Assembly: GCA_947452365.1 (NCBI GenBank)
Contig: CANGCO010000007.1
Span: 363-64,362 of the forward strand
Length of the DNA: 64,000 nt
Reading direction: 5' to 3'
From: Caulobacteraceae bacterium
GTDB lineage: Bacteria > Pseudomonadota > Alphaproteobacteria > Caulobacterales > Caulobacteraceae
The notes under the pieces are model-generated. The model was given only the letters and a program-made list of their open reading frames with translations, was not told where the DNA came from and did no database searches. Position 1 is the stretch's first letter. The number at the start of each line of letters is the position of its first letter. Shown one piece after another: positions 5,526 through 63,425 of the stretch. The translations under genes and the position numbers were made by a program.

Positions 5526-5645
5526 CGGGCAAGCATTCGGACGAGAGGCCTTGGGCGGGCGAACACGCGCCAATGTCTTAAAACGATCATCTATTCGTGC
5601 GTTAGATGCGACTTGCGCGCTTGGCGTCTATGCGACTGATTCGAT

Positions 5646-7109
5646 ATGATGAACATTCTCCTCATTACGCTCGACCAGTTTCGCGCAGACTGCCTTGGAT
5701 GCGCGGGGCATCCGATTGTCCAGACCCCCAATCTGGATCGGCTAGCGGCCGACGGCCTTAGGCTGGCGCGGCACTATAGCCAATGCGCGCCTTGCAGCCC
5801 TGGCCGGGCGAGCCTCTATACCGGCCTGTATCAGAGCAATCATCGCGTGGTTGGCAATGGCACACCCTTGGATGCGCGCTTTGACAATATTGCCAAGGCC
5901 GGTCGCCGCGCGGGTTATGTGCCGACCCTATTTGGCTATACGGATCAGAGTATTGATCCTCGGCAGGCTGACGGTCCGGACGATCCAAGGCTTGAGGATT
6001 ATGAACAGGTCCTGCCCGGTTTTGACGTCGGTTATCGCCTTGGTCCGGCGCGCCCTGATGACTGGGTCCAATGGCTCAAGGCCAAGGGCTATACACTCCC
6101 AACCGATGCCATGGCCGCGATTGCAACCGAAGCCGATCGACACGAGGATTTGAGCCTATCGGCATTCTTGACGAACAAGTTTGTCGATTGGCTTGGCGTT
6201 CAGGACCGGCCCTGGTTTGCGCATCTTAGCCAGTTTCGTCCACATGAGCCATTTGCGGCAGCAGGCCGATTTGGCACCCTGTATGATCCAGACGACATGG
6301 CTGATCCAATTATTCCGGCCGCAGAACGCCACCCCTTGCATGATGGCCTAATGCGCCACCCCCTGCTCAAGGCCCCGTCCGATCCAAACGAGATGAGGCG
6401 GCTTCGTGCGCAGTATCTGGGCATGGTTAGCGAGGCAGACCATCAATTGGGGCGCGTCTGGGATGCGCTAGAAGCCCTTGGGCAATGGGACAATACGCTG
6501 ATTATTGTGACCTCTGACCATGGCGAGCAGTTTGGCGATCACGGCTTGATGCAAAAGCTGGGGTATTTTGAAGGCAGCTTCCATATTCTCGGTCTTGTGC
6601 GCGATCCGCGTGCGGGCAAGGCGCGTGGCGGCGTTGTGGATCGGTTCACAGAGAATATTGATTGGTTTCCCACGCTTTGCGAGGCGATGAATATCCCCGT
6701 GCCGACCCAGTGTGACGGGTTTCCTCTAACGCCGTTTTTGGAGGGCCGCACCCCCGACCAATGGCGTGACGCGGCGCATTGGGAATTTGACTGGCGCTCT
6801 TCCTATATTGCCCAAGGCCCGCATGATTGGCCCTGGGACCGGCGGCTCGAGCGGATGAATCTGGCCGTTCGGCGCAGCGAAAAGGCGGCCTATGTCCATT
6901 TTGGCGATTGCAGTAATATTGCCTTTGACCTTGCCGCTGACCCCAGCTGGCGAACGCAATTAACGGATCCGCGGGATATACTCAGAGAAGCGCAGGCCAT
7001 GCTGACCTGGCGGGCACAGCATACGGATCGCACCATGACCGGCATGCTGGTGGAAAATGGCGGCATTGGCCGATGGCCGCCCATGCCAAAAGATTGGGGC
7101 AACCAATGA
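5646..7109 (+). CDS. alkaline-phosphatase-superfamily hydrolase (sulfatase / phosphonate monoester hydrolase-like)
   Basis: 487 aa with no signal peptide. It carries the formylglycine-type C-x-P-x-R motif (CSPGR) after LLITLDQFRAD and the motif IIVTSDHGEQFGDHGL. From memory it resembles cytoplasmic PMH-type enzymes. Confidence 0.75.
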   Translation: MMNILLITLDQFRADCLGCAGHPIVQTPNLDRLAADGLRLARHYSQCAPCSPGRASLYTGLYQSNHRVVGNGTPLDARFDNIAKAGRRAGYVPTLFGYTDQSIDPRQADGPDDPRLEDYEQVLPGFDVGYRLGPARPDDWVQWLKAKGYTLPTDAMAAIATEADRHEDLSLSAFLTNKFVDWLGVQDRPWFAHLSQFRPHEPFAAAGRFGTLYDPDDMADPIIPAAERHPLHDGLMRHPLLKAPSDPNEMRRLRAQYLGMVSEADHQLGRVWDALEALGQWDNTLIIVTSDHGEQFGDHGLMQKLGYFEGSFHILGLVRDPRAGKARGGVVDRFTENIDWFPTLCEAMNIPVPTQCDGFPLTPFLEGRTPDQWRDAAHWEFDWRSSYIAQGPHDWPWDRRLERMNLAVRRSEKAAYVHFGDCSNIAFDLAADPSWRTQLTDPRDILREAQAMLTWRAQHTDRTMTGMLVENGGIGRWPPMPKDWGNQ

Positions 7110-51575: not shown

Positions 51576-52328
51576 TCAGTCAATCACCCAAGCATCGGCA
51601 ATTTCATCGCCCAATTGGGCCAAGGTTTTTAGGGCGTCGGGATTCATCAGGGTCAGTATGCCGTCGTGAAAATCCAGAACCCGATCCTCTCTGAGCTTTC
51701 GCAACATGCGATTGACATGGATGGCGGTCAGGCCAGTCGCGTCGGCAATTTGAGATTGGGTCAGGGGCAGTCGAATCTTGCTGTCCGCCATGTGTGCCAG
51801 CTTGCGGGTCGCCATTACCGTTAATTCCATCAATAGGTTTGCAATCCGGGTCAAGGCGCTGGTCTGGCCGACAAAGGCTAGGCGGTTCTCGGTAATGAGC
51901 GACTCGCGGCCCATCATCCATACCAGACGGCGATTGAGTTGCGGATGGCTATTGAGCAGAACGGACAGATTGGCAGCTGGCATGGCGCAGACGGTCACCT
52001 CATCAAGGGCCATGGCGCTTTTTCCGTTGGAGACTAGTCCTTCTGGACGAAGTCCAAAAATTGCGCCCTTGGTTAGGAATTGGGAAATCTGTCTTTGACC
52101 GTCCAGCAGATCATGACTTATGGCCACCCAGCCAGAAATGATATTGTACACAAAGGCGTGAGGGTCATGGGCGCCATAGACCATCTTGCCAGGTCCGTAT
52201 GACCGGATCCGATATTGCAACATCTGCAGGTCTCGCAACTCATCCTCTGTCTTCATGGATTGACAAAGACCGAGCGGTCGAGCGGCGCAAAATCGACATA
52301 CCGAGGTTGACGGGGGGCGAGGGGGCAT
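51576..52328 (-). CDS. Fnr-type Crp/Fnr-family regulator (N-terminal C-x2-C-x7-C motif)
   Basis: Cys11, Cys14 and Cys22 (CRFCAARPLGLC) plus a central Cys114 are positioned like the FnrN/FnrL [4Fe-4S] ligands. It has a cNMP-like beta-roll and a C-terminal HTH (TQSQIADATGLTAIHVNRMLRKLRE). Confidence 0.8.
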   Translation of the reverse strand: MPPRPPSTSVCRFCAARPLGLCQSMKTEDELRDLQMLQYRIRSYGPGKMVYGAHDPHAFVYNIISGWVAISHDLLDGQRQISQFLTKGAIFGLRPEGLVSNGKSAMALDEVTVCAMPAANLSVLLNSHPQLNRRLVWMMGRESLITENRLAFVGQTSALTRIANLLMELTVMATRKLAHMADSKIRLPLTQSQIADATGLTAIHVNRMLRKLREDRVLDFHDGILTLMNPDALKTLAQLGDEIADAWVID

Positions 52329-52601
52329 TTTTACCGTGCTTCCAGACTAGGTCCACGCAGTAGATGGCGCGGCCTAGACAGTTAAAATTGAATGTTAGTC
52401 TCGTGTCCGATAGAAAATCTTCGGTCCTTTTACAAATTGGTTATGATAGGTGCTGATATTGTCTTTGAAGCAACGGGTTGGATTGCTATCGATGCTTTAG
52501 GCCGATATTTATTGTAATTTACCCTTTCCAAGACCGGAGATCAGCGCAAGTCCTACCAGATATTTTCATAATTATTAGATATCGTCGTTATGCAGAGGGA
52601 A

Positions 52602-52615
52602 TTGATTTTACTCAA
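52602..52615. promoter_or_regulatory. FNR/FixK-like box TTGATTTTACTCAA
   Basis: It has one mismatch to TTGAT-N4-ATCAA. It overlaps the stop codon of the flavodoxin-like gene and lies about 275 nt upstream of the fnr-like gene start (52328). Confidence 0.4.
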
Positions 52616-53147
52616 GCGCATAATTTAAATTACCAATAACGAGGTTTTTTCTAGATTTTGCCAAAACGGGAAACAGGGTCCGACTGAATTTTGCGATCGG
52701 ATATTGATAGAGATCAGCATCGCATAGGTGCTGGGCCAGGCTGCAACGGCGAAACTGGCTATGCCCGACCAGGCGCTCGACCTCGGCAAAAAAGCCTGTG
52801 CCGTCGGCAATGGTCCAGCCGGTGCAAAACACCCCGACCAGTCGGCTGGCAATGGCCGGATTGGTTAGATATTGGCGCAAGGGGCTTGGCACATGTCCGG
52901 CCCAAACCGGACCGCCAATAATGATATGGTCATAGGGTATTGGGTCCAGCAGGGCATGAATGGGGCACTGGCCGTGGCCAAGCCCCGCCAGATAGGCGCG
53001 GCCAAAGCCTAGCCTTCCGGCATAGCGCCCATCTTCGGTGATCGGATCACAATCGGCGCCAAGCCAGCGGGCCAACGCCTTAGCCAAGCGCTGTGTGGTG
53101 CCGGTTCGTGAATAATAGGCGACTAGAATTTTCACGCCAAACCTCAC
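52608..53147 (-). CDS. flavodoxin-like fold protein
   Basis: The N-terminus KILVAYYSRTGTTQRLAKALA is typical of flavodoxin-like proteins. The start is one of two GTG codons (53147 or 53135). Confidence 0.6.
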   Translation of the reverse strand: MRFGVKILVAYYSRTGTTQRLAKALARWLGADCDPITEDGRYAGRLGFGRAYLAGLGHGQCPIHALLDPIPYDHIIIGGPVWAGHVPSPLRQYLTNPAIASRLVGVFCTGWTIADGTGFFAEVERLVGHSQFRRCSLAQHLCDADLYQYPIAKFSRTLFPVLAKSRKNLVIGNLNYALE

Positions 53148-53247
53148 CTGAAAAAGGGGAGGTTAAGAAACCTAATAACAATAATAATTGATATTTATGT
53201 GGAAATTGGCCAATCGGCGCGATTTTTGGGTCTCTGGGCGTCGTGGA

Positions 53248-53484
53248 CTAGTGCGCGGCGGCTGTGAATGACCGTCTCGCTTCGCATTCCATCATCCGGT
53301 TGAGCCAGCGCCCAAGGCGCGAGCGCCGTGGCCCGCGATCCCTTGCGGCCCAAGCCCGAGACAGGGTCTTGCTGACCAGGACTTGGCCCTGATCGCGATC
53401 GGGTGTCAGGGTCATGGCCTTGCGCGTTAGGGCCGGGGTCTCTTCGAGTAGGCTAAACCCAAAGGCCAAGACATCATTTTGCAT
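53248..53484 (-). CDS. hypothetical small protein
   Basis: This is an ORF only, with no recognisable family. Confidence 0.25.
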   Translation of the reverse strand: MQNDVLAFGFSLLEETPALTRKAMTLTPDRDQGQVLVSKTLSRAWAARDRGPRRSRLGRWLNRMMECEARRSFTAAAH

Positions 53485-53566
53485 CTGCGTAATCCTGAAA
53501 TCAAACCCTTGCGGAGATGGGTTCCGGAGGCAGAGCCCTTATAGTCCCAACGACCCTGTCTAGGGA

Positions 53567-53580
53567 TTGATCTGGATCAT
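53567..53580. promoter_or_regulatory. FNR/FixK-like box TTGATCTGGATCAT
   Basis: It has one mismatch to TTGAT-N4-ATCAA. It lies in the divergent intergenic region, with its left edge 108 nt upstream of the ATG at 53675. Confidence 0.5.
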
Positions 53581-53674
53581 GGGGCCTTTGCATCCGGTGG
53601 ACCATGATGCTCGCAACATGCCCGGGCCGAATTGCCCGCGTGCATCTCGGTTTGGCCGTGAGGTTTGCGTCAAG

Positions 53675-54169
53675 ATGAAGAAGATTTGCTATGTGATCGC
53701 CGATGCGGGCCGGGCGCGGCTTGTTCGACAACGCTTGGAAGATGGGGCCTTTGTCACCTTCGAGATACTCGCGCCCGATTCAGGGATCGGTTTTGGCCGC
53801 CGCGCCTTGCGAACCGGGCATACGGTCAATTTCGCCAGCCATGGTGTCCGGCGTCACCAGATCCAGCCAAAACTTGGCCTAAGATATCGGGCTCTACGCG
53901 CTTTTGCCGTCCAGATCCTTGAGCGGGTCGATGCCTTGCTGAGTGTTGGCGCTTATGATGCGATCGTCTTGATCGCGCCACCGCGAATGTTGCAGGCCTT
54001 TGGTCGCTATATGAACCTGGGCATGCGCACGCGCCTGGTCGGGCAATTGGGCAAGGATCTCTCAAAGACCCCGGACCATGATCTGCAAGAGCACTTATGG
54101 ACGGTCAATTTGTCGGACCTGTCGCGCGGTGCCGGGCGACAATACCATGGCAGTGCAAGGCTGCATTGA
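53675..54169 (+). CDS. host-attachment-protein-like (AtsE family) protein
   Basis: It has N-terminal KICYVIADAGRARLV. Its size and pattern resemble 'host attachment protein' family members often found in FixK/Fnr regulons. The assignment is from memory. Confidence 0.5.
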   Translation: MKKICYVIADAGRARLVRQRLEDGAFVTFEILAPDSGIGFGRRALRTGHTVNFASHGVRRHQIQPKLGLRYRALRAFAVQILERVDALLSVGAYDAIVLIAPPRMLQAFGRYMNLGMRTRLVGQLGKDLSKTPDHDLQEHLWTVNLSDLSRGAGRQYHGSARLH

Positions 54170-54697
54170 GCGCGTAACCGCCTTATTCAGGGTGCTGATG
54201 GCCTGTTCATAATCCGAGCCAAGGCCTGCGGCCAGATGGTTCTGCGCGGCCTGTGCATAGGCGGATGTGGCTATCAGGGTTGGGCTGATCGCATTGACGA
54301 GGGCCACTTGGCCCTTGATGCCCGCGGCAAGCCGCCAGTGATTCGCAAAGCGACGGGCACTGTATGATGGCATAGACAAGACTTGCCCGTCTGATTGCGC
54401 CTCTGGATCGAGCATGCGGCTGAGCACTTCGGTTCTGTTCTGGGTTTGAATTCCATCAAGTCAGCCTAAGCCATTGCTCCTTGCTTGATCTAGATTGGTG
54501 ATCTTGTGCCCGGCTGCATTAGCATAGACCAGACCGTCCGTTAGATCTGTAATTCTGACGGGAGCCGGGCAAAGGGATGCCAGACCCATCCATTGCGCAA
54601 ATGGAGAGTCCAAGAGACCCATCGTTTGAACCAAACCCGTCGCCCTTGCGCCTCTTTCAAAAAATAGACCCGGATAGAAAAACGTAAATAAAAACAA
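54095..54697 (-). pseudogene. possible PAS-like gene interrupted by one in-frame TGA
   Basis: ORFs 54461..54697 and 54095..54427 are in the same frame, separated only by the TGA at 54458-54460 (..ARSNGLG*LDGIQTQ..). The upstream part has a PAS-like start (APVRITDLTDGLVYANAAG). The 3' end overlaps the convergent gene by 75 nt. Confidence 0.25.
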
Positions 54698-54739
54698 AAA
54701 CTAATTTGATTCCGGACGCGGGCTTTGTTGGGTCATAAA

Positions 54740-54753
54740 TTGAGACTTATCAT
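54740..54753. promoter_or_regulatory. FNR/FixK-like box TTGAGACTTATCAT
   Basis: It has two mismatches to the consensus and lies about 45 nt upstream of the minus-strand ORF start at 54697. Confidence 0.35.
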
Positions 54754-54856
54754 TTTTTAAAAAGGTAAATCTACACAAAATTGAAACATTAATTTTTTAT
54801 CGGTCGTGCCTTTAGTGCGTCCTATCGTGCCATTGAAAATACAATTTTATCACAAG

Positions 54857-54870
54857 TTAATCTGCATCAA
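54857..54870. promoter_or_regulatory. FNR/FixK-like box TTAATCTGCATCAA
   Basis: It has one mismatch to the consensus and lies about 90-105 nt upstream of the ATG at 54962 of the FixK-like gene. Confidence 0.5.
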
Positions 54871-54961
54871 TCGAAACTGCCTTGAGGCGTAAGTATAGTT
54901 ACAAATATCGAAATGAAATGAGGTCGGTTAAATGCGACTTCACCATAACGGAGGGCGTCTT

Positions 54962-55693
54962 ATGCAATTTTCTCGCAATCAAGGTGATCGACAGTCCTTA
55001 CACGCAGAGAAATCAACCAATGGGTCACGTCAGGATCTGCGCCGGGGCGAAACCCTTTATGCCGAGGATGATGCGGCCCTCGACTGGTTCGTTGTTGCCA
55101 GTGGCGTATTGCGCACCTGCCGGTATCTGCCCGATGGACACCGTCAGGTAACGGGCTTCTATTTTGCCGGCGATGTGGTTGGTCTAGAAGCGCCGGCTCG
55201 CCGGACCAGTGCCGAGGCCGTTACCGATGTCGCTGTAATGCGCTTTGATCGGGCCGTGCTCGATGGGCGTGATGACACACTTCTAGCGTCGCAAGGCTCG
55301 GCCCGGGAGGTTCTGCTTACGGCCTTGGACGCGGCTGAGGGCCGGATTGAGCTCTTGGGCCTTCGAAGCGCCAGCGAGCGGGTTGCCGGGTTCTTGTTGC
55401 GTATGGATGGCCAGGCCGACGCTGAGGGCTTCATCTATTTACCCATGGGCCGCGCCGATATTGCAGATTATTTGGCCCTGACGGTTGAAACGGTTAGTCG
55501 GACCTTGTCATTGCTGGGTCGGCGCAAGCTTTTGGCCTTTCGCGGTCCGCAAAAGGTTAAGCTGCTGAACCGTGAGACCTTGGAAGATGTCGCTGGTGGC
55601 AAGCCTTGGGTGCCGCATCCGGCCTTTATCCCAGCCATGCCAGTCGGTGTTTATAATCCAAGACTCGATGGCGCAAGCGCTCGTCCGTCCTAG
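54962..55693 (+). CDS. FixK-type Crp/Fnr-family regulator (no N-terminal Cys cluster)
   Basis: It has a cNMP-like domain and the HTH RADIADYLALTVETVSRTLSLLGRRKLL. There are 45 nt between its stop and the downstream OMP gene. Confidence 0.8.
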   Translation: MQFSRNQGDRQSLHAEKSTNGSRQDLRRGETLYAEDDAALDWFVVASGVLRTCRYLPDGHRQVTGFYFAGDVVGLEAPARRTSAEAVTDVAVMRFDRAVLDGRDDTLLASQGSAREVLLTALDAAEGRIELLGLRSASERVAGFLLRMDGQADAEGFIYLPMGRADIADYLALTVETVSRTLSLLGRRKLLAFRGPQKVKLLNRETLEDVAGGKPWVPHPAFIPAMPVGVYNPRLDGASARPS

Positions 55694-55738
55694 GCTCAGC
55701 GGTCCTTATCCGACATCCACCAAACGAGGAGAGGTTCG

Positions 55739-57067
55739 ATGAACCGCGCCAATCTGGCAGCCCTTGCCTGTGCCAGCCTGCCTTTGGGTCTGGTTATCGG
55801 CATGCCCGCTGCCCATGCCCAGGTTCAGGCCCAGGCCGCTCCAAGCCTCGAAGACCGCCTAGCGCGGCTTGAAGCCCAGTTATCAGCGCAAGATCAGAGG
55901 ATTGCTGATCAAAATCTGGAGCTGTTGCAACAGCACCGTCAGATCAAGGCCCAACAAGACCAGTTGGATATCAGCACGTCCGAACTGAGCCATCTTCGCG
56001 TCGAGACCGATCCGACCTTGGCGGGCCTGCAGGGGCGGGGTGAGACAGCCCCAGCCGCCCAGCCTAATTTGAACGCCCCACCGGGCACAGCGCCTCAGGC
56101 GCCTAGTCCCATGCCAGACCAGCCCGTGGGCCAGGCCCCGGCTGCGACGCCCGCACCGCCACCAATGGCCGCCATCCCGCCCGAAGCGACGGTCTTGACG
56201 CCTGTGCACCACCTGACCCTCGAGCCATCGGCCGATTATACCTATTCGGGTTCTAATATTTTGGTGTTTCGCGGCGTAGAGATTGTGCCCGGCGTTCAGC
56301 TTGGCGTAATTGAGGCCAGCAATACGTTAAGGGCGGCGGAATCGGTGGCCTTGACGGCGCGATATGGCCTGTTTCGGCGCCTAGAGGTCGAGGCGCGTGT
56401 TCCTTATGTCTGGCGTGCGGACCGCATTGGTGTGGTGCAACAGCGCGATGCTCAGGTCCGGCGTGAAATCTCGCTTGCTGACCAAGATTTTGGCGATATT
56501 GAGCTTGCGGCGCGCTATCAAATCAATCGTCTGCGCCCAGACTATCCGGTGTTTATCGCCGGCTTGCGGGTCAAGAGCGATACGGGCACCAGTCCGTTCA
56601 CCATCGCGCGCGATAGTTTCGGCGTCGCCGAGCACCTGGCTACGGGCTCAGGCTATTGGACGGCTGAGCCTAGCCTGACCATGATCTATCCCACCGATCC
56701 GGCCGTGTTCTTTATCACGGCCAGCGCCTTGGGCGGCCTAACCACCAAGATCAATCAAACCATAGACGGGGTCTTTCTGCATAAGGTGATTCCGGGCGGT
56801 TCAATGTCCTTGAGCCTTGGCTATGGCTTTGCAGTCAATCAACGGTTTTCATACTCGGTGGCCTATCGCCATAGCTATCTGATGCCGACGGTTTTGAGGA
56901 TCGGCACGGCTGAGGTGAAGTCCAAGAGTGTTCAAATCGGCGGCATTGCGTTGGGCGTATCCTATCGGTTGTCCGACCGGATCTCGATTAGCTCGGCCTT
57001 TCAGTTCGGCACCACGCCCGATGCGCCGGATACCAGTATTAGCTTTCGGGTCCCCATTGCCTTCTAG
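55739..57067 (+). CDS. outer-membrane protein: signal peptide, coiled coil, Pro/Ala linker and beta-barrel (FapF-like architecture)
   Basis: The RBS is GAGGAGAGG. The signal peptide ends ..MPAAHA/QVQ. A heptad-like segment (LEDRLARLEAQLSAQDQRIADQNLELLQQHRQIKAQQDQLD) is followed by a P/A-rich stretch (APPGTAPQAPSPMPDQPVGQAPAATPAPPPMAAIPP). About 280 aa of alternating beta-strand sequence then end in ..FRVPIAF. Confidence 0.6.
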   Translation: MNRANLAALACASLPLGLVIGMPAAHAQVQAQAAPSLEDRLARLEAQLSAQDQRIADQNLELLQQHRQIKAQQDQLDISTSELSHLRVETDPTLAGLQGRGETAPAAQPNLNAPPGTAPQAPSPMPDQPVGQAPAATPAPPPMAAIPPEATVLTPVHHLTLEPSADYTYSGSNILVFRGVEIVPGVQLGVIEASNTLRAAESVALTARYGLFRRLEVEARVPYVWRADRIGVVQQRDAQVRREISLADQDFGDIELAARYQINRLRPDYPVFIAGLRVKSDTGTSPFTIARDSFGVAEHLATGSGYWTAEPSLTMIYPTDPAVFFITASALGGLTTKINQTIDGVFLHKVIPGGSMSLSLGYGFAVNQRFSYSVAYRHSYLMPTVLRIGTAEVKSKSVQIGGIALGVSYRLSDRISISSAFQFGTTPDAPDTSISFRVPIAF

Positions 57068-57192
57068 GGTGATGATCCGAGGCGGTCCGGCCGTCCCCGC
57101 CCCTTTGCGCCGGTCCTGATGCTTAACCCGTCTCTCTGCCCCCTTGAGAGGCAGGTTAAGCACTTCATCGCGTGCACCGCATAACAGCAAAA

Positions 57193-57224
57193 TTGCCGCC
57201 GGGCGCCTTGTTTACCGGGCGGCA
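57193..57224. terminator. bidirectional stem-loop terminator between the convergent OMP gene and the fibre operon
   Basis: AAAA-TTGCCGCCGGG-cgccttgttta-CCGGGCGGCAA-AA forms a GC-rich stem. Only the bottom strand has a U-tract after the stem (for the minus-strand operon). On the top strand the stem is followed by AAAACC, so termination of the OMP gene is less clear. Confidence 0.5.
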
Positions 57225-57244
57225 AAACCATGAATGGCGCGGCT

Positions 57245-57817
57245 CTATTGCGCTGTGATCGCGGCCTGGGTGATGTCGCGGTTTAGGGCGGCGACCAATT
57301 GGCCTTGGCCCGTGGTGGCCGCGAAATTGGCCGCATCGGGCAGGGTTATGTTCAAGGCCAGATCTTGACGAATGGTTTGACCGTCGGCGGTATTGAGCAG
57401 CACATTTTGCAGCCCGCCATTGACCGCCTGTTGTATCAGCACGGTCTGGCCGTTGCCCCCGACATAGAGCCCAGTGCCCGTGCTCAGCAAGGCGCTGTTG
57501 GATTCAGACAGCATGGACTGGATATTGCTCATCTGGGTCAAGACCAGGTCACCATAGGCCGTCTGCTCGACCTGTTTGCCGGTAGGGGTCCAGGTCATGG
57601 TGGTTTCAAGCGCGAGCTGACCATCAATAAAGGTCTGCATCTTGGCGGCGAAATTAAAGGCAATCCCGTCGGCGACCAAAAAGCCGCCACGCTGATCGGC
57701 CAGGGTCGTCTCGTCCGCGGCCTCAAACTGGCTCCAGTCATCGGCGTACCCCTGCATGGGCAACAGAACTAGGGCTGTGGTCAGGACCAGTTGAGCAATC
57801 AGGGCTCTAGGTTTCAT
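57245..57817 (-). CDS. secreted protein P3 (position of FapE in a Fap-like operon)
   Basis: The ATG at 57817 has an AGGAG RBS that overlaps the upstream stop. The signal peptide is MKPRALIAQLVLTTALVLLPMQGYA/DD. The C-terminal part has the motif GGLQNVLLNTADGQTIRQDLALNITL. Confidence 0.5.
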   Translation of the reverse strand: MKPRALIAQLVLTTALVLLPMQGYADDWSQFEAADETTLADQRGGFLVADGIAFNFAAKMQTFIDGQLALETTMTWTPTGKQVEQTAYGDLVLTQMSNIQSMLSESNSALLSTGTGLYVGGNGQTVLIQQAVNGGLQNVLLNTADGQTIRQDLALNITLPDAANFAATTGQGQLVAALNRDITQAAITAQ

Positions 57818-57828
57818 GGCGTTCGCTC

Positions 57829-58599
57829 CTAGGGGGCCGGCAATTCGACATTGCGCACTGGCGTGATCTGGTAATAGGGCGGCAGGTTCATGGGCGTGTC
57901 TGTGATGGGCGGTGCAGCCTCGGTCAGGCTGGCCTGAAGCGGCGCCGTCGACCAAGGGCTCCATTCGCCTGCATCATTAAAACGGGGCTTGCGCTTAAGA
58001 TCTGGGGTCTCGCGAATGACAAACACAATGCCATTCCAGAGCTTTTCAAACACGGGCCGTTTGATGATCAAGAGACCCAAGGCGGGGTCGCCGACCAGGA
58101 CCTTGTCGGGGTGAATGCCCTTGACCACGACAAAATGTTTATATTGGCCAATGGTCAAAAGCACGATGGCCGGGGTCTGCATCCGCTCTAACTGGTCCAG
58201 GCTGATGCGAAAACCGTCGGCCCGGTAGCCCATGGCCTGCAGATAGGCGCGCATATCGAGCATGGAAAACCCGACCCTTTGGATGGCATTATGGTCGCCA
58301 ATCTTCCACATCCAAGCAAAGGCGTCGCTTTCGCGGGTCGGACGGCCATAATGATATTGCAGCAGGGTCGCAAGAGCCGCTGAGCCGCAGCTATAATCAT
58401 ATTGCTGGCGCACCACACTGCGAAACGGAATGTCCCGCCAGGTCATGATCGGCAGATTATAGACCGCCACATCGGCGCCATTGCGCATGGCCATAATTGG
58501 CTTGTCCGCGGCGCTGGCTAGGGGGCCCAAGGCGACAGACACTAGGCCAAGCATGGCCGCCAAGCGCATGGGTCGGCGGGAAGGGCGCATGGGCTGCAT
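57829..58599 (-). CDS. periplasmic C39-like cysteine peptidase (FapD-like)
   Basis: It has a signal peptide (..LGPLASA/AD), a Gln/Cys motif (VVRQQYDYSCGSAALATLLQY) and a His/Asp motif (YKHFVVVKGIHPDKVLVGDPALG). No ABC transporter domain is attached. Confidence 0.75.
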   Translation of the reverse strand: MQPMRPSRRPMRLAAMLGLVSVALGPLASAADKPIMAMRNGADVAVYNLPIMTWRDIPFRSVVRQQYDYSCGSAALATLLQYHYGRPTRESDAFAWMWKIGDHNAIQRVGFSMLDMRAYLQAMGYRADGFRISLDQLERMQTPAIVLLTIGQYKHFVVVKGIHPDKVLVGDPALGLLIIKRPVFEKLWNGIVFVIRETPDLKRKPRFNDAGEWSPWSTAPLQASLTEAAPPITDTPMNLPPYYQITPVRNVELPAP

Positions 58600-58612
58600 C
58601 GGTCTTGCCCCC

Positions 58613-59020
58613 TTAGGGTGCGGGCGTCATGGAGACGGGCACGCCCATAATGATGTTCACCGTGACACTGCCCTGCAGATTATTATTGTGCCCGGTATTG
58701 AACACATAATTGCCCACGCCCGTGGCCTGGGACAGGACCTGGCCCGACAGGGTGATGGCCCCAGACGATACGGAGTCGGCATTGATCGAATTGCCGCTAT
58801 TATTTGCGGTCAAGATCTGCAGCGAGATTGGCTTTGGATCCGACGGCTCGGCACCGCCCGACAGGTCGGCCAAGGCCTCTGGGCTCAAGGCGGGCGACAC
58901 TTCGCTAGAGGCGGCGGCTTGAACCGGGATGGGCTGGTCAAGGCCTGAGCCGCATTCGGGCGCTAGGGGGCTGGACCCGGCAAGCACGGCAAACGCGAGA
59001 ATGGACAGATGAACGGCCAT
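58613..59020 (-). CDS. secreted protein P2 (small N/S/G-rich subunit-like protein)
   Basis: The ATG at 59020 is preceded by AGGAGG. It has a hydrophobic leader. Its C-terminal motif is ATGVGNYVFNTGHNNNLQGSVTVNIIM. Confidence 0.5.
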   Translation of the reverse strand: MAVHLSILAFAVLAGSSPLAPECGSGLDQPIPVQAAASSEVSPALSPEALADLSGGAEPSDPKPISLQILTANNSGNSINADSVSSGAITLSGQVLSQATGVGNYVFNTGHNNNLQGSVTVNIIMGVPVSMTPAP

Positions 59021-59098
59021 GATGGCCTCCTCTTGTATCGAGATGAGAAAGCCGGACCGGGGCATGGGGGTACCCCGGTCCGGCCGCTGCTCAGACTT

Positions 59099-59794
59099 CT
59101 AGTGCCCGAAAGCGATAGAAGCGTTCGCAGTCACACCGGTCGCAGCCTGGTTGTTCGAGGCTAGGCCGGTATTGTTTGACGCAGTCTGGATACCCGCAAA
59201 GTTCTGGAAGGCCGCGCCGTCCATGCCGATATTGCCGGTATAGACATTAAGCGCGCCGCTCGAGGCTGCACCGGCACCGCCGCCAGCACCCGCACCACCA
59301 ACGCCGCCAACGCCGCCAACGCCGCCGGTACCAAGAGCAGCACTACCGCCATTGCCGCCGGTTCCGCCGCTTGCGGCATCACCACCCGAACCACCCGCAC
59401 CAGCGGCTTGGTTATTGTTGTAGTTAAAGGTCACATCGCTGACCTCACCCTTCAGTTCTAAATCAGTCGTTGCCCGGTTTTCGACGCGGGTGTCGTTTGA
59501 GGCATAAGAACCAATATTGATCGAGTCGTTGACATTCTTGACTTCGCTGACGCTTACGGTTTTGGTATTGGTCTCAGATGAGTTGCCGCTATCAGTGGCA
59601 ACCGTATTGCCACTGTCGCTAACTGTGACTGGCTTGTTGATGTTAACGGCCTCGTTGCCAAGGCCAATTGCGGCCGGGCCAGACCCGGTGACATTGCCAT
59701 CAAGCACAGGCACGGCGACCTGAGCGGACGCAAAGCCGCAAACGGCAAAGCTCAAGGCAAGGGCCGATGCAGTAGCGAGAACTGTCTTTTTCAT
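59099..59794 (-). CDS. secreted repetitive N/S/T/G-rich protein P1 (candidate major fibre subunit)
   Basis: The RBS is GAGGAG and the signal peptide is ..CGFASA/QV. An N/S/T/V-rich region is followed by a roughly 50-aa Gly-rich tract. The C-terminal motif is FAGIQTASNNTGLASNNQAATGVTANASIAF. Confidence 0.6.
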   Translation of the reverse strand: MKKTVLATASALALSFAVCGFASAQVAVPVLDGNVTGSGPAAIGLGNEAVNINKPVTVSDSGNTVATDSGNSSETNTKTVSVSEVKNVNDSINIGSYASNDTRVENRATTDLELKGEVSDVTFNYNNNQAAGAGGSGGDAASGGTGGNGGSAALGTGGVGGVGGVGGAGAGGGAGAASSGALNVYTGNIGMDGAAFQNFAGIQTASNNTGLASNNQAATGVTANASIAFGH

Positions 59795-59926
59795 TTTGTG
59801 CTCCTCACAAAACTAGAATTTACGGTAAAGCTGCCAATACCAAAGTATTGATAGGAAATTTACCTAACCACCCCCCGTGATGTATCGGGAGTAGGGGCAT
59901 TATTGAAGGAAATATACAATAATTAC

Positions 59927-59981
59927 ATGATATTGATCATGAATACTGGTTTTGATATATATCTATACTGATTTTTATCAT
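59927..59981. promoter_or_regulatory. cluster of three Crp/FNR-like TGAT-N4-ATCA boxes in a divergent AT-rich promoter region
   Basis: The boxes are ATGATattgATCAT (59927-59940), TTGATatatATCTA (59952-59965) and CTGATttttATCAT (59968-59981). They lie between the P1 gene start (59794, minus strand) and the MgtC-like gene start (60148, plus strand). Confidence 0.5.
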
Positions 59982-60147
59982 AATTTCAATTCATGATATA
60001 TGGGGGCGTTGTTTCCCGAATTCGTTATGGTGGGTCATGCTAGTCAGGTTTTGCACACGCTCTGCGGCTTGATGAATTCCTTGGCATGTAAAGGCTTGAA
60101 GGCGGATGATCGCTTCAGGTTCACCAATTGAGCGCTAGGGGCGTCAC

Positions 60148-61410
60148 ATGACGATCGGACCGGTTTACAGCCTCGCCATTGCCTTGAGCCTAGGCATGTT
60201 GATCGGGCTGGAGCGCGGCTGGCAGGCAAGGGACCTTCCCGAGGGACAAAGGGTCGCAGGCATTCGCACCTATGCCCTGATTGGCCTTTTAGGCGGGGTC
60301 TGTGGCCTAGAGCCAGGACCCTATCTGGCGGCGGTTGGCCTTGGCATGGTCGGCCTATTGGTCGGCGGGTTTCATTATCTTGAGGCGAGGAGTGATCGTG
60401 ATCTGGGCTTAACCAGCCTGTTTGCCGCGGTCTTGACCTATGGGCTGGGCGTATTGGCGGTGCGCGGCCAGCCCTTGGCGGCAGCCGCAGCCGCAACCGC
60501 GGCGGTCATACTCTTGGCTAGCAAATCGTCCCTGCATGCCTGGGTGCGGGCGGTCAGTTGGCCGGAATTGCGCGGCTTTTTGGTGTTGGTGTTTATGAGC
60601 GCCCTCGTCCTGCCACTCATGCCAAGCGTGGCCATTGATCCTTGGGGCGCACTGGTGCCGTCCGAGATCTGGTTCCTGGCTGTGATGATTGCCGCCCTGT
60701 CCCTGGTCGGTCATGGGGCGGTTAGGATATTGGGGCCGGGCAGGGGCTTGGCCGTGTCGGCGCTAGCGGGCGGGCTAATGTCCTCGACGGCCGTTGGTCT
60801 ATTGTTTGCCCGCAACGCCCGGCAAAGCCCAAGTCAGGCCCAGAGCCTAGCCGGGGCTTCCCTATTAGCCAGCGGCGTGATGAGTTGCCGTACACTCTTA
60901 CTCATCGGCCTGATCCGGCCAGCGCTCTTGCCCAGCCTTTCATTGGGTCTGGTGGGACTTGGCCTAGTACTATTTATTGGTGGCTATCTGGTCATGCGAC
61001 TGGACCAGCCCCTGACGGCTGTGCCTCGCGCCGCACTGGATATTGCCTCGCAACCGTTTGATCTGTTTGTTACCCTAAGGCTGGCGGGCCTGATCGGCCT
61101 TGTCATGCTCACTGCGCGTCTGGCCAGCTTGGCGCTGGGTCAGGGCGGGGTAATGATTGTTTCGATCCTGGCCGGCATGGCCGATGTGGATGCTGTCACC
61201 CTATCCTTGGCGCATGCCCAAACATTTGGACCAGACCAGGCCATGATTGTCATGGTCATTGGCGCTGCCATCGCAAGCAATACGGTCGTCAAGTCGGTCT
61301 TGGCGGTCATTCTGGGGGGGTGGGTGCATGGCCGGAACTATGGCCTAGTCAGTTTGGTCGCCTTGGTGTGCGGGGCGGCGGGCCTGGTATTGGGTCTCAA
61401 TCTAGGCTGA
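60148..61410 (+). CDS. MgtC/SapB-family plus DUF4010 membrane protein
   Basis: 420 aa and polytopic. The N-terminal LGMLIGLERGW......AG.RTYALIGLLG is typical of MgtC-domain proteins fused to DUF4010. Confidence 0.7.
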   Translation: MTIGPVYSLAIALSLGMLIGLERGWQARDLPEGQRVAGIRTYALIGLLGGVCGLEPGPYLAAVGLGMVGLLVGGFHYLEARSDRDLGLTSLFAAVLTYGLGVLAVRGQPLAAAAAATAAVILLASKSSLHAWVRAVSWPELRGFLVLVFMSALVLPLMPSVAIDPWGALVPSEIWFLAVMIAALSLVGHGAVRILGPGRGLAVSALAGGLMSSTAVGLLFARNARQSPSQAQSLAGASLLASGVMSCRTLLLIGLIRPALLPSLSLGLVGLGLVLFIGGYLVMRLDQPLTAVPRAALDIASQPFDLFVTLRLAGLIGLVMLTARLASLALGQGGVMIVSILAGMADVDAVTLSLAHAQTFGPDQAMIVMVIGAAIASNTVVKSVLAVILGGWVHGRNYGLVSLVALVCGAAGLVLGLNLG

Positions 61411-61435
61411 GATTTGCGGACAAATACCAATAGGC

Positions 61436-61449
61436 TTGATCTCAATCAG
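61436..61449. promoter_or_regulatory. FNR/FixK-like box TTGATCTCAATCAG
   Basis: It has one mismatch to the consensus and ends 67 nt upstream of the ATG at 61516. Confidence 0.45.
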
Positions 61450-61515
61450 GTCTATCCGAAGGGGAATTTGGCAATGATCAATTGTGATTTGCACCCTAAG
61501 AACAGGCACAGTCCC

Positions 61516-61713
61516 ATGCTTAAGATTATTGAGCTTCAAGCCGATTCCAATTCTGGGTGGCAAGAAGCGGCCGATCAGGTGATTAAGGTGGCCTCAAACA
61601 CGGTGCGCGGCATCCGCACAGTGCGGGTGGATAGTTTCGAGGCCCAGGTCGCAGAAGGCTTGATTGTCAATTACCGCGTGACGGCCAAGGTCTTGTTCGA
61701 ACTGGATAGCTAG
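61516..61713 (+). CDS. dodecin-like small flavin-binding protein
   Basis: The 65-aa MLKIIELQADSNSGWQEAADQVIKVASNTVRGIRTVRVDSFEAQVAEGLIVNYRVTAKVLFELD follows the dodecin pattern (.K.IE..G.S..SWE.A...A...A..T...I.......V..G.I..Y...V.V.F). Confidence 0.6.
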   Translation: MLKIIELQADSNSGWQEAADQVIKVASNTVRGIRTVRVDSFEAQVAEGLIVNYRVTAKVLFELDS

Positions 61714-62399
61714 GGCTGCAGAACCACAGTGCTGGCATGGTAGCAGGAGCAGGCGTGCTGTTCCAGCACGGGCCTGTCCTTGATCTCGATCCAGCCATAG
61801 CCTGTGGTAATAGCATTTGAGGCCTTGAGCTTGCCCAGTTCGACCGTTACGCCGGCGCGCCGGATGCCATGGAGCTGGGCCAAGACATGATGGCTGATAT
61901 TTACGCGGGCGCTGTCGGTTAGGTCTGATGCGCGCAATAGCCAAGAGACCAGGCGCTGTTGGCTAGTATGATTTTGACTACAGGCCGTAACCCTGGCCAT
62001 TTTCATAAACATGTTTCGTTTTGCCGTCTGCAAACCGGCCCTTAGGCTGGGCAATTCAGGCAGGAGCGTATTAGCGGTGCTAGACAAGAGCGCATAGGCC
62101 GTCAGGTTTGTCAGGCACAAGGCCTGGACCACGTCTAGGCCATTATCCAGCCTGACCGTGGCATCGATGAGGCTGTCATGGCCAAGTAATACAAAGGCTG
62201 TGTCTTGCCGATCCACCTGAATGGTCAGGGCAAAAATTCCAGACAAGACAAAATAAATATAAAAATCGGTGGGGCCATATTGTGTAGATAATGGGCCCGG
62301 TTTAAACTCTTTATACACAAGATGAGATTGTAGATTATACCAATCTTCAGCAGCTAAACCAGAAATTATGTGATTACTATGTCGATTAATTGCGTTCAT
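61710..62399 (-). CDS. Crp/Fnr-family regulator (no Fe-S motif; C-terminal C-x-C)
   Basis: It has a cNMP-like domain, the HTH ISHHVLAQLHGIRRAGVTVELGKLKA and a C-terminal ..LEQHACSCY. The first roughly 55 codons are markedly AT-rich. Confidence 0.65.
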   Translation of the reverse strand: MNAINRHSNHIISGLAAEDWYNLQSHLVYKEFKPGPLSTQYGPTDFYIYFVLSGIFALTIQVDRQDTAFVLLGHDSLIDATVRLDNGLDVVQALCLTNLTAYALLSSTANTLLPELPSLRAGLQTAKRNMFMKMARVTACSQNHTSQQRLVSWLLRASDLTDSARVNISHHVLAQLHGIRRAGVTVELGKLKASNAITTGYGWIEIKDRPVLEQHACSCYHASTVVLQP

Positions 62400-62645
62400 T
62401 ATCGCGCCAAATTAGATTTAAACTGAGCCAATTGGTCATTTAATCGCAAATGGATCTTCATAATGCTGTTATATATTCTAAAATTCAAACTGAAAAGATT
62501 TTTCATTTCATAGTACTAAGTCAGTATTTGATTTATTTACCAATTAAAAAAAATTATTGACCAGTTAAATCCAGTGTGATTTTCATAGCTATCTAAGGCG
62601 CCGGTAAGACCCTGAACGCGGTTAGATTCGAAGGATCGGGTGGTT

Positions 62646-63425
62646 ATGGCAGATGGCGGGATCGGCCTAGTCTTGCAAGACAATTGCCGCTTTTGCGGTG
62701 TTCGCGGGGCCTTGTCTTGCCCGCAAGCGGCCTTGGGCGCGCACGCCGACACCCTTGCGCAATTTGATCATGTCTATCCCATAAGTGTACTTCAGACCGG
62801 CGAACAGCTTGTGCCGAGGCGCCATGAGCCGGATCATTATTGCCTGGTTCGTTCGGGCTGGTTCGGGCTGTTTGCCCACCGGCATGACGGAAGCCGGCAA
62901 TTGCTGCGACTCGCCCTACCGGGCGAGGCCTTTTGGCTCAAGGCCAATCACCATGATCCGGCGACCCAGGCGGTTGAGGCCTTGACCCCAGCCAGCTGTT
63001 GCTGGCTCAGTCAGGCTGAAATGGAGACAATCAGCCGATCAGACCAGTCCTATTTCGGGGGGTATGTCACCGGTCTGGAGCGCGAACTGGCCCTTGCCCA
63101 AGACAGCATGATCAATCTGGGCCGCAAGGACGCCGCCACCCAAGTCACCCAGTTTCTGGTCAGTCTGGCCATGCGCTCTACCGGCAAGGATATCTTGCAG
63201 ACGCCAGAGCCCTGCAAAATCCCCCTGACCCAGCGCACAATCGGCGAGGCGCTGGGCCTGACCCAGATCCATGTCAATCGCACCATCCGGCACCTGCGTT
63301 GCGAAGGCCTATTGACCTATCAGGGCGGGGTCTTCATGCCGCTGGATCCCGTTCGGATCAGCGACATGATTGATCTGACCCCCGAAATGCGCGCCCTGTG
63401 GCTGGCAAGACCGCTGGCTAGCTGA
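62646..63425 (+). CDS. Fnr-type Crp/Fnr-family regulator (second C-x2-C-x7-C paralogue)
   Basis: It has CRFCGVRGALSC near the N-terminus and central Cys residues (PASCCW). The HTH is TQRTIGEALGLTQIHVNRTIRHLRCEG. Confidence 0.75.
   Translation: MADGGIGLVLQDNCRFCGVRGALSCPQAALGAHADTLAQFDHVYPISVLQTGEQLVPRRHEPDHYCLVRSGWFGLFAHRHDGSRQLLRLALPGEAFWLKANHHDPATQAVEALTPASCCWLSQAEMETISRSDQSYFGGYVTGLERELALAQDSMINLGRKDAATQVTQFLVSLAMRSTGKDILQTPEPCKIPLTQRTIGEALGLTQIHVNRTIRHLRCEGLLTYQGGVFMPLDPVRISDMIDLTPEMRALWLARPLAS

Follow-up and report, generated by a model that had tools for sequence, protein, structure and literature searches.

Five genes at positions 55739-59794 of a 64,000-nucleotide (nt) stretch of Caulobacteraceae DNA (contig CANGCO010000007.1; the whole stretch is called the window here) raise the question of what a free C39 peptidase, a coiled-coil outer-membrane protein (OMP) and three secreted proteins, P1, P2 and P3, are doing side by side. 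A preliminary description of the window had likened the cluster to the Pseudomonas fapABCDEF system, pointing to the order subunit-subunit-C39 peptidase-accessory protein plus a coiled-coil porin. That likeness is supported by the sequence comparisons reported here. The locus probably encodes a system of the Fap type, with two-step secretion across the outer membrane and assembly at the cell surface, that forms a sister family to the functional-amyloid machinery fapBCDEF of Pseudomonas. The OMP and the peptidase match FapF and FapD, the P3 family carries a candidate recognition site for the peptidase, and the gene set recurs as a unit in other bacteria.

The channel, the peptidase and their linkage

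The five open reading frames (ORFs) were re-derived at the positions first given for them, and an independent gene caller finds the same five genes on the same contig among the ENA metagenomes. The closest genome record is a freshwater Caulobacteraceae metagenome-assembled genome, and its C39 protein is 91% identical. Four genes form a minus-strand operon composed of P1 (59099-59794, 231 aa), P2 (58613-59020, 135 aa), the C39 peptidase (57829-58599, 256 aa) and P3 (57245-57817, 190 aa). The coordinates of this operon and its junctions, 13 nt between P2 and the C39 gene and 11 nt between the C39 gene and P3, were reproduced. The OMP gene (55739-57067, plus strand) encodes 442 aa with the C-terminus -IAF. 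The claim of a good ribosome-binding site for every gene also held, as Shine-Dalgarno-like sequences precede all five starts (GAGGAG, GAGGAGG, AAGGGGG and AGGAG, with GAGGAG before the OMP gene). The leaders described as cleavable-looking on the operon products are found on all five proteins; by direct reading of the sequence, each has an N-region that is basic or neutral, then a hydrophobic core and an AxA-type site. The P2 leader is the weakest in the window genome, and P2 homologues have clear leaders.

The OMP is a homologue of FapF, in the sense of homology and not of orthology. Its residues 47-442 match positions 18-420 of the 420-position NCBIfam FapF model (E 2.5e-28), and its barrel (residues 167-441) matches the FapF crystal chain 5o67 in the PDB at E 5.5e-22. 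The NCBIfam FilC model is matched at E 2.5e-17. The protein is composed of a signal peptide (55739-55819), a coiled-coil helix (55844-55996), a Pro/Ala linker (56039-56188) and a predicted beta-barrel (~56234-57064), which is the build proposed for it in the preliminary description. Residues 36-86, which include a single Pro and lack Gly, follow a heptad pattern, and single-sequence AlphaFold2 (AF2) places a helix at residues 37-84, with a predicted local distance difference test score (pLDDT) of 94-95 over residues ~41-70. Residues 96-160 are 26% Pro and 20% Ala. The motif T282-G283-x-x-P286 together with TGxG is invariant and is common to the OMP family and Aeromonas FapF.

A further motif, P-V-G-(Q/E)-A-P, stands in the linker just before the barrel (window 56120-56140, OMP residues 128-134). 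Its Val-Gly pair is invariant, Aeromonas FapF included, and the motif may mark a plug or hinge region. FapF-like proteins are also found in other settings. The plasmid of Vibrio sp. SCSIO 43009 (L017, 6839-10054) encodes a FapF-like OMP without the coiled coil, ~1.1 kb upstream of a 355-aa D/N/S-repeat protein; the plasmid has phage-like genes, and the plus-strand listing of the region contains no C39 ORF of at least 100 aa. On an Indioceanicola profundi plasmid (L016, 6518-9266), a coiled-coil FapF-like OMP is followed by type II secretion pseudopilin-like genes and preceded, on the opposite strand, by an apparent giant repeat protein, with no C39 gene.

The peptidase is a FapD homologue, though not an equivalog, with an intact Gln/Cys/His/Asp catalytic set. 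FapD is its best curated NCBIfam match (E 1.2e-41), followed by FilB (E 3.7e-35), and Pfam Peptidase_C39 matches residues 62-198 at E 1e-22. The protein starts with a signal peptide (58510-58599, minus strand). All 16 sequences of an alignment keep Q65, C71, H155 and D171; Cys71 lies within 58375-58401, His155 within 58117-58143 and Asp171 within 58075-58095. These catalytic residues align with the CG, HF and DP motifs of 6mpz, a solved double-glycine protease that is among the PDB matches of this protein together with 4ry2 and 3k8u. The wider C39 family has more than 6300 members at E<1e-5. Outside the Pfam match, a C-terminal tail of ~55 aa is conserved in the family (F-N-x3-E-W-x-P-W-S-x-A-P ... 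L-P-P-x-Y-Q-I-T-P; window 57829-58020, residues ~194-256). The C39 domains of ATP-binding cassette (ABC) transporters are not known to have a comparable tail, and it is possible that the tail serves as a docking element.

The genes travel together. A metagenome scan gave at least 590 confirmed C39 relatives, and the linkage counts come from the 80 loci that were kept, each count being taken over those with enough flanking sequence for it. The next gene after the C39 gene codes for P3 in 49 of 52 loci. Upstream of the C39 gene, a protein with the C-terminal motif of P1 and P2 is encoded in 57 of 60 loci, and two such ORFs are found in 18 of 41. The OMP gene lies within the downstream flank in 25 of 27 loci, 17 of them convergent and 8 co-linear. 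The inverted porin gene of the window is the commoner layout, but the 8 co-linear loci among the 25 are arranged like fap. By tblastn, all five genes occur together in six lineages. Three more carry all five co-linearly in fap order: Croceicoccus marinus pCME4A9I, Polymorphobacter sp. PAMC 29334 and Cupriavidus metallidurans CH34. The OMP gene sits inside the operon in L011, L013, L015 and L018, and Phenylobacterium zucineum-type contigs have the convergent layout. A survey for co-occurrence had been proposed, and it shows a gene set that recurs widely; because the same set is found on dozens of unrelated contigs, the arrangement is far beyond chance.

The hosts of the module are Caulobacterales, Sphingomonadales and Cupriavidus. 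C. metallidurans CH34 is a betaproteobacterium, so the view of the system as an alphaproteobacterial one did not survive. A published survey found no Fap system in Alphaproteobacteria (PMC3792158). The module would extend FapD/FapE/FapF-type machinery well beyond the Fap systems of Beta-, Gamma- and Deltaproteobacteria into common freshwater and soil Alphaproteobacteria, on a scale of at least 590 metagenome loci and 1213 P3 clusters. Cultured carriers are C. metallidurans CH34, Phenylobacterium zucineum HLK1, Croceicoccus marinus E4A9 and Polymorphobacter sp. PAMC 29334. The label 'undescribed' stands in part. Searches of the open-access literature on FapD/FapF-like systems, FapD cleavage and alphaproteobacterial Fap returned no description of the module, and only its substrates and the module as a whole are new here; a 2018 paper had already remarked on fapD and fapF homologues lying together outside Fap systems, in further phyla, but named no substrates for them (PMC6173800).

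A candidate recognition site after the Sec signal of P3

P3 is read, with moderate confidence, as the counterpart and remote relative of FapE. We take it as such because profile comparison and position agree: P3 lies right after the C39 gene, where fapE lies in fap, and had been placed there as an accessory protein in the preliminary description. Aligned against seven FapE sequences with hhalign, a 15-sequence P3 profile gave 45% (P 2.2e-4) and an 86-sequence profile gave 88.4% (P 2.8e-6), and the match lies directly after the signal peptides of both families. When the 86 members were scanned singly, 11 matched NCBIfam FapE (best E 8.8e-4). FapE is the only recurrent NCBIfam family among them; every other family is matched by at most two of the 86. 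The relationship is visible only to profile-profile comparison. The P3 family itself is large and lacks annotation. A word-indexed search returned 15 relatives, none of them named, and an exhaustive profile search returned 1213 clusters (E<=1e-3), of which 154 reach E<=1e-30.

P3 is composed of a Sec signal (57743-57817), the sequence DETTLADQRGG (57683-57715, ending in G44-G45) and a C-terminal NT(A/G)-Q motif (57341-57451), all on the minus strand. The second element belongs to a near-invariant motif of the family, (L/V)-S-D-x-E-L-x-x-x-R-G-G, found ~10-20 residues past the Sec-type signal peptide. C39 peptidases recognize the consensus LSxxELxxIxGG, and our criterion for a double-glycine leader was that it ends in Gly-Gly, has Glu in position -8 and is hydrophobic at -12, -7 and -4. 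Among 86 P3 representatives with pairwise identity of at most 50%, position -12 is L/V/M/I in 94%, -11 is S/T in 55%, -10 is D/E in 83%, -8 is E in 68%, -7 is L in 94%, -3 is R in 95%, -2 is G in 96%, -1 is G in 98%, and +1 is F in 72%. Position -4 is partly hydrophobic (L 24%, M 10%). The P3 family thus carries the double-glycine leader that marks C39 substrates, and cleavage is predicted. In the window the cut would fall in ...ADETTLADQRGG/FLVADG, where the slash marks the scissile bond.

P2-like proteins are the main other class matched by the leader hidden Markov model (HMM). Such leaders occur in many lineages, for example LNDSELDTQRGG and LSDADLAEHRGG. Window P2 has SPEALADLSGG (58853-58885), which the leader HMM matches at E 0.014 over residues 43-56, and P2 would have the feature in part. 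The leader HMM finds no double-glycine leader in P1.

FapC secretion depends on the catalytic Cys38 of FapD, and no Fap protein other than FapE lacks peptides from its first ~70 residues (PMC5557850, PMC6173800). Since at least 2017, the substrate of FapD has been undetermined and no recognition site has been identified (PMC5557850, PMC6173800). The P3 leader is a concrete candidate for a FapD-class recognition site and could reveal the target of the Fap-type peptidase in the periplasm. At the position that aligns with this leader, Aeromonas-type FapE reads L-x-D-x-E-L-x-x-L-R-G-R. The cut sites are predicted precisely, as R-G-G/F in window P3 and L-R-G-R/Y in Aeromonas FapE.

The putative subunits, the proposed mechanism and competing readings

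P1 and P2 share a C-terminal motif of ~45 aa, G-x-(I/V)-x-(L/F)-x-G-x-A-(F/L)-x-N-F-x-G-(I/V)-x5-N-T-G-x3-N-x-Q-x5-(V/I)-x-(V/I), and P3 carries a looser copy. An HMM of this motif matches window P1 at E 4.7e-20 and window P2 at E 8e-19. P1 is composed of a signal peptide (59723-59794), a variable N/S/T/D-rich region, a Gly-rich tract (59264-59404) and the motif (59102-59239), all on the minus strand. Across lineages only the last ~48 residues of P1 are conserved, with 65-69% identity; the N-terminal part varies, is N/S/T/D- or Gly-rich, and brings total lengths to 180-511 aa. P2 is a small secreted protein with one such motif (58646-58762, minus strand). When a 70-sequence motif profile was compared with 11 Fap repeats, taken from Aeromonas and a second fap locus, hhalign gave 43%, P 2.5e-4 and a score of 21.6 in the expected register. 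A tblastn search of plasmids for further FapC sequences, with Aeromonas FapC as the query, returned that protein alone. In 200 column shuffles the score was 8.7 +/- 1.9 with a maximum of 17.1, so that none reached the observed value, and a reversed alignment scored 7.8. Because the score exceeds the shuffled and reversed controls, the likeness of the motif to the Fap repeat is real but weak. The earlier remark that the subunits are 'not obviously FapC-like' therefore holds for the family models, which P1 and P2 do not match, but the motif does statistically resemble one Fap repeat.

A GC hairpin with a 15-bp stem (59051-59085, minus strand) lies just past the P1 stop codon and is followed by the U-rich tail UUUCUCAUCU; the P1-P2 intergenic region folds at -38.5 kcal/mol. 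A hairpin stands at the same position in nine of nine lineages (the window, L005, L007, L008, L010, L011, L013, L015 and L018), although the sequences differ, and a T-run often follows. It is likely an intra-operon attenuator or terminator. Its position suggests that the cell makes more P1 than P2, C39 peptidase or P3. P1 is probably expressed at the higher level because the hairpin follows its gene.

In the mechanism that we propose, all five products would cross the inner membrane via Sec. The OMP would form a barrel of the FapF type, presumably a trimer, whose coiled coil lies in the periplasm. The periplasmic C39 peptidase would recognize the double-glycine-type leader of P3 and, less clearly, that of P2, and cut after Gly-Gly, between G45 and F46 in P3. 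Cleavage of P3, and perhaps of P2, would license or initiate export through the channel, with leaderless P1 as the bulk secreted subunit. The Fap-repeat-like beta motif at the C-termini of P1, P2 and P3 could serve in channel threading or in mutual stacking outside the cell. The outcome would be a fibre or matrix layer, and in the window Caulobacteraceae lineage the channel gene would be coupled to a FixK-like regulator. A more detailed version is offered tentatively. In it, P3 is a substrate of FapD-type peptidases, a Sec signal followed by a double-glycine propeptide acts as the gate, and the single-repeat proteins P1 and P2 stack into a cross-beta fibre to which each molecule adds one rung, with the variable low-complexity domain exposed on the fibre surface.

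Several results weigh against this picture. Neither P1 nor P2 has a Pfam or NCBIfam match (NCBIfam searched to E<=10), and PDB sequence searches with P1, P2 and the P3 profile gave nothing beyond chance or low-complexity matches. The Pfam family FapBC (PF27129), whose status was read from precomputed Pfam marks on the contigs, is recorded for true FapB/C and is not recorded for P1 and P2 on four contigs; in a direct HMMER search the motif HMM finds no Aeromonas FapB/C. P1 and P2 have one motif and not the three imperfect repeats of FapB/C, so the amyloid formation of FapC is not transferable to them. P3 has no Pfam, NCBIfam or PDB match, and no FapE match at E<=10. Its link to FapE spans ~31 aligned columns; among the six-frame ORFs of the genuine Aeromonas fap locus, the P3 HMM ranks FapE third at a non-significant E of 0.47. 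P2-like leaders have variable ends (GG, GE, AG or GR; in longer form SGG, AGG, RGE, HGR; E 0.01-3). In Aeromonas-type FapE the second Gly is Arg, and because of this substitution the motif may serve for docking and not for cleavage. AF2 gave no confident fold for P3 (12 sequences, pLDDT 47.6), and single-sequence AF2 models the N-terminal helix of the OMP with confidence and not the barrel. The support consists of sequence and models throughout, and fibre or amyloid formation is putative.

The same machinery might export non-fibrillar products, a soluble or surface-anchored matrix, an adhesin or a coat, with the C-terminal motif acting only as a channel-targeting signal. We regard this as rather unlikely. 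Each protein does carry a single repeat-like motif, the FapB/C models are unmatched, AF2 returns no beta-solenoid, and the long variable low-complexity N-terminal part of P1 resembles a spacer or an adhesin stalk. However, the motif lines up in the correct register with the amyloid-core repeat of FapB/C, which it resembles, and the hairpin after P1 suits one major and several minor subunits. A FapE-like component is also retained, and FapE of Pseudomonas is fibre-associated (PMC6173800).

The locus could also be a known quantity, an orthologous fap operon that diverged in Alphaproteobacteria. As in Pseudomonas fapABCDEF, the channel is a barrel homologous to FapF, with a coiled coil at its N-terminus and a disordered linker, and it goes with a Sec-exported, stand-alone C39 peptidase that has its catalytic Cys and His. 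A gene for a remotely FapE-like protein directly follows the peptidase gene, two N/Q/G-rich secreted proteins precede it, and in the co-linear versions of the module the gene order is identical. All four core roles have homologous or remotely similar counterparts in fap order. Fap operons that lack fapA, or in which fapF lies apart, are already known (PMC3792158). The FapA model matched none of the five proteins, the FixK-like regulator, an MgtC/DUF4010 protein or a second Crp-like regulator, in agreement with the earlier report of no FapA equivalent. This absence is not decisive because fapA is often missing in true Fap systems (PMC3792158).

Orthology is nonetheless improbable. The OMP scores 99 bits with the FapF model (equivalog cut-off 700) and the peptidase 142 bits with FapD (cut-off 330), whereas a divergent but genuine Aeromonas fap operon reaches 371 and 249 bits, with FapB, FapC and FapE also recognized. 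These scores make the two proteins relatives and not orthologues of FapF and FapD. None of P1-P3 matches FapB, FapC or FapE at E<=10 (FapB and FapC models NCBIfam NF058557 and NF058558, Pfam PF27129), and Pfam FapBC is not recorded for P1/P2, as noted above. The build of the subunits differs as well, with one C-terminal repeat-like motif in P1 and P2 in place of three repeats, a long variable low-complexity N-terminal region in P1, and no FapA in the window module. The P3-family leader ends in R-G-G and that of Aeromonas FapE in R-G-R. The channel gene of the module is usually convergent, and the hosts are Cupriavidus and Alphaproteobacteria, in the latter of which the survey cited above recorded no Fap. 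The module has a common ancestry with FapD and FapF, and probably with FapE. Because the FapB/FapC feature and all equivalog thresholds fail, the module is not filed as a Fap system. The different subunit build bears on how common amyloid-like or fibre matrices are in environmental biofilms.

A FapD-like peptidase and a FapF-like channel also go together in the 'putative pilus system' filABCDEF of Acinetobacter, which makes it another branch of such modules. The profile of the OMP family matches FilC at E 6e-37. The window proteins match FilB and FilC (NCBIfam NF050078 and NF050079, cut-offs 475 and 630 bits) more weakly than FapD and FapF, and far below the cut-offs, which argues against Fil membership. 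The Fil order is subunit, C39, OMP and then FilD/E/F, without P2- or P3-like genes; FilA, D, E and F are without a counterpart in the window module, and the P1/P2 and P3 profiles match none of the FilA, FilD, FilE and FilF products. In an A. baumannii strain (L014), FilA (5512-6378) starts MQSMDDAALSAATG past its signal peptide, which faintly resembles the leader motif. Between filA and filC, that strain shows no ORF of FilB length (at least 150 aa).

A bacteriocin or signalling-peptide exporter, with P2 and P3 as double-glycine pro-peptides that the C39 peptidase would process and the OMP would release as toxins or signals, is very improbable. The leader is canonical, and 2 of the 86 P3 members weakly match a bacteriocin family (E 0.04). 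The C39 domains of ABC exporters (PCAT1, ComA, LahT-type) have the peptidase fold and the catalytic residues in common with the module peptidase, and their substrates share the hydrophobic -12, Glu -8, Leu -7 and Gly-Gly at -2/-1. However, the C39 of those exporters is a cytoplasmic transporter domain, whereas the module peptidase is free and periplasmic. In the module, the leader comes after a Sec signal, position -3 is fixed as Arg, and export would proceed via an outer-membrane barrel. The module is distinct from ABC-linked double-glycine systems because its peptidase is free and periplasmic and its leader follows a Sec signal. The loci contain no ABC transporter or immunity gene. Mature P2 and P3 have 80-150 aa, are N/Q/S/T/G-rich and carry the Fap-like motif, and P1, the likely main product, is leaderless.

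Curli (csgBAC/csgDEFG) and the Caulobacter holdfast anchor HfaABD also pass Sec-exported, unfolded N/Q/G-rich subunits through a dedicated outer-membrane channel for extracellular assembly. Their machinery is unrelated to the module, with a CsgG-type lipoprotein channel and no C39 peptidase. A curli- or Hfa-type system was dropped, as no CsgG/HfaB-like gene is evident at the locus, where no test aimed at one was made.

Least probable of all is an OMP that is an unrelated uptake channel for hydrophobic compounds (COG4313 or MetA-pathway type) and merely lies beside the operon: it stands on the opposite strand, is coupled to a regulator and matches Pfam Phenol_MetA_deg below threshold (E 0.04, 14.4 bits, cut-off 22), but FapF is by far its best match, which overrules the MetA-type porin raised beforehand as a refutation, its N-terminal coiled coil is FapF-like, and it is tied to the C39 module by the linkage and in-operon loci given above.

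Expression signals and neighbouring genes

The OMP gene is preceded by a FixK-like Crp/Fnr regulator gene (54932-55693, plus strand; Pfam cNMP_binding, HTH_Crp_2 and Crp; NCBIfam FixK E 2.5e-40). The gap is 45 nt, and the two genes are probably co-transcribed. Upstream of the regulator gene lies the FNR/FixK-type box TTAATCTGCATCAA (54857-54870, plus strand), which has one mismatch to TTGAT-N4-ATCAA and is placed ~42 nt 5' of the start site implied by a -10-like TATAGT at 54894-54899. Placement near -42 is the layout of a class II FNR promoter, and the box is a putative class II site. The same regulator stands directly upstream of the OMP gene in L005, L007, L008 and L010. The reported link between porin and FixK-like regulator is true of the window, but it is lineage-specific. 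Because it lies upstream of the OMP gene in only 3 of 19 convergent metagenome loci, the regulator is taken as a lineage-specific accessory. Crp/Fnr genes occur in 8 of 24 long loci, and the neighbouring regulators vary among Crp/Fnr, extracytoplasmic function sigma and LuxR/GerE types.

A second candidate box, TTGATATATATCTA (59952-59965, strand not assigned), with one mismatch to the FNR/FixK consensus, lies in an AT-rich region upstream of P1. It is kept in the close relative L005 and absent from the other lineages examined; the case for its function is weak. General FixK control of the module was rejected, since P1-upstream boxes occur in the window lineage only and Crp/Fnr genes in the 8 of 24 loci. 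FixK-type control may operate in the window lineage.

Between the convergent OMP and P3 genes lies the inverted repeat TTGCCGCCGGG...CCGGGCGGCAA (57193-57225), with 10 of 11 bp paired. It folds at -18.3 kcal/mol on the plus strand and -21.9 kcal/mol on the minus strand, and a short U-run follows on the minus-strand RNA only. It corresponds to the shared stem-loop first placed at 57193-57224 and is likely a terminator. Rfam contains no match for a riboswitch or other RNA in the long P1 leader. A match to snoU82P, a eukaryotic snoRNA, at window 57066-57121 (18.3 bits against 42, E 0.34) was judged a chance match.

Genes for polysaccharide synthesis (epimerases, GT2, BcsS-like, GH10) adjoin the module in L010 (11701-14570) and L101 (8974-12753), and these neighbours are compatible with a matrix role. 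In the window, four Crp/Fnr-family genes lie within 12 kb (51579-63425), at 51579-52346 (minus strand), 54932-55693 (plus), 61710-62399 (minus) and 62640-63425 (plus). Their neighbours include Usp, BON, Host_attach/baeRF_family12, dodecin and MgtC/DUF4010 genes. Over the whole window, matches to the FNR/FixK-type box number 49, an enrichment over the 19.5 +/- 3.9 expected, and the region 51579-63425 looks like a FixK or low-oxygen stress island.

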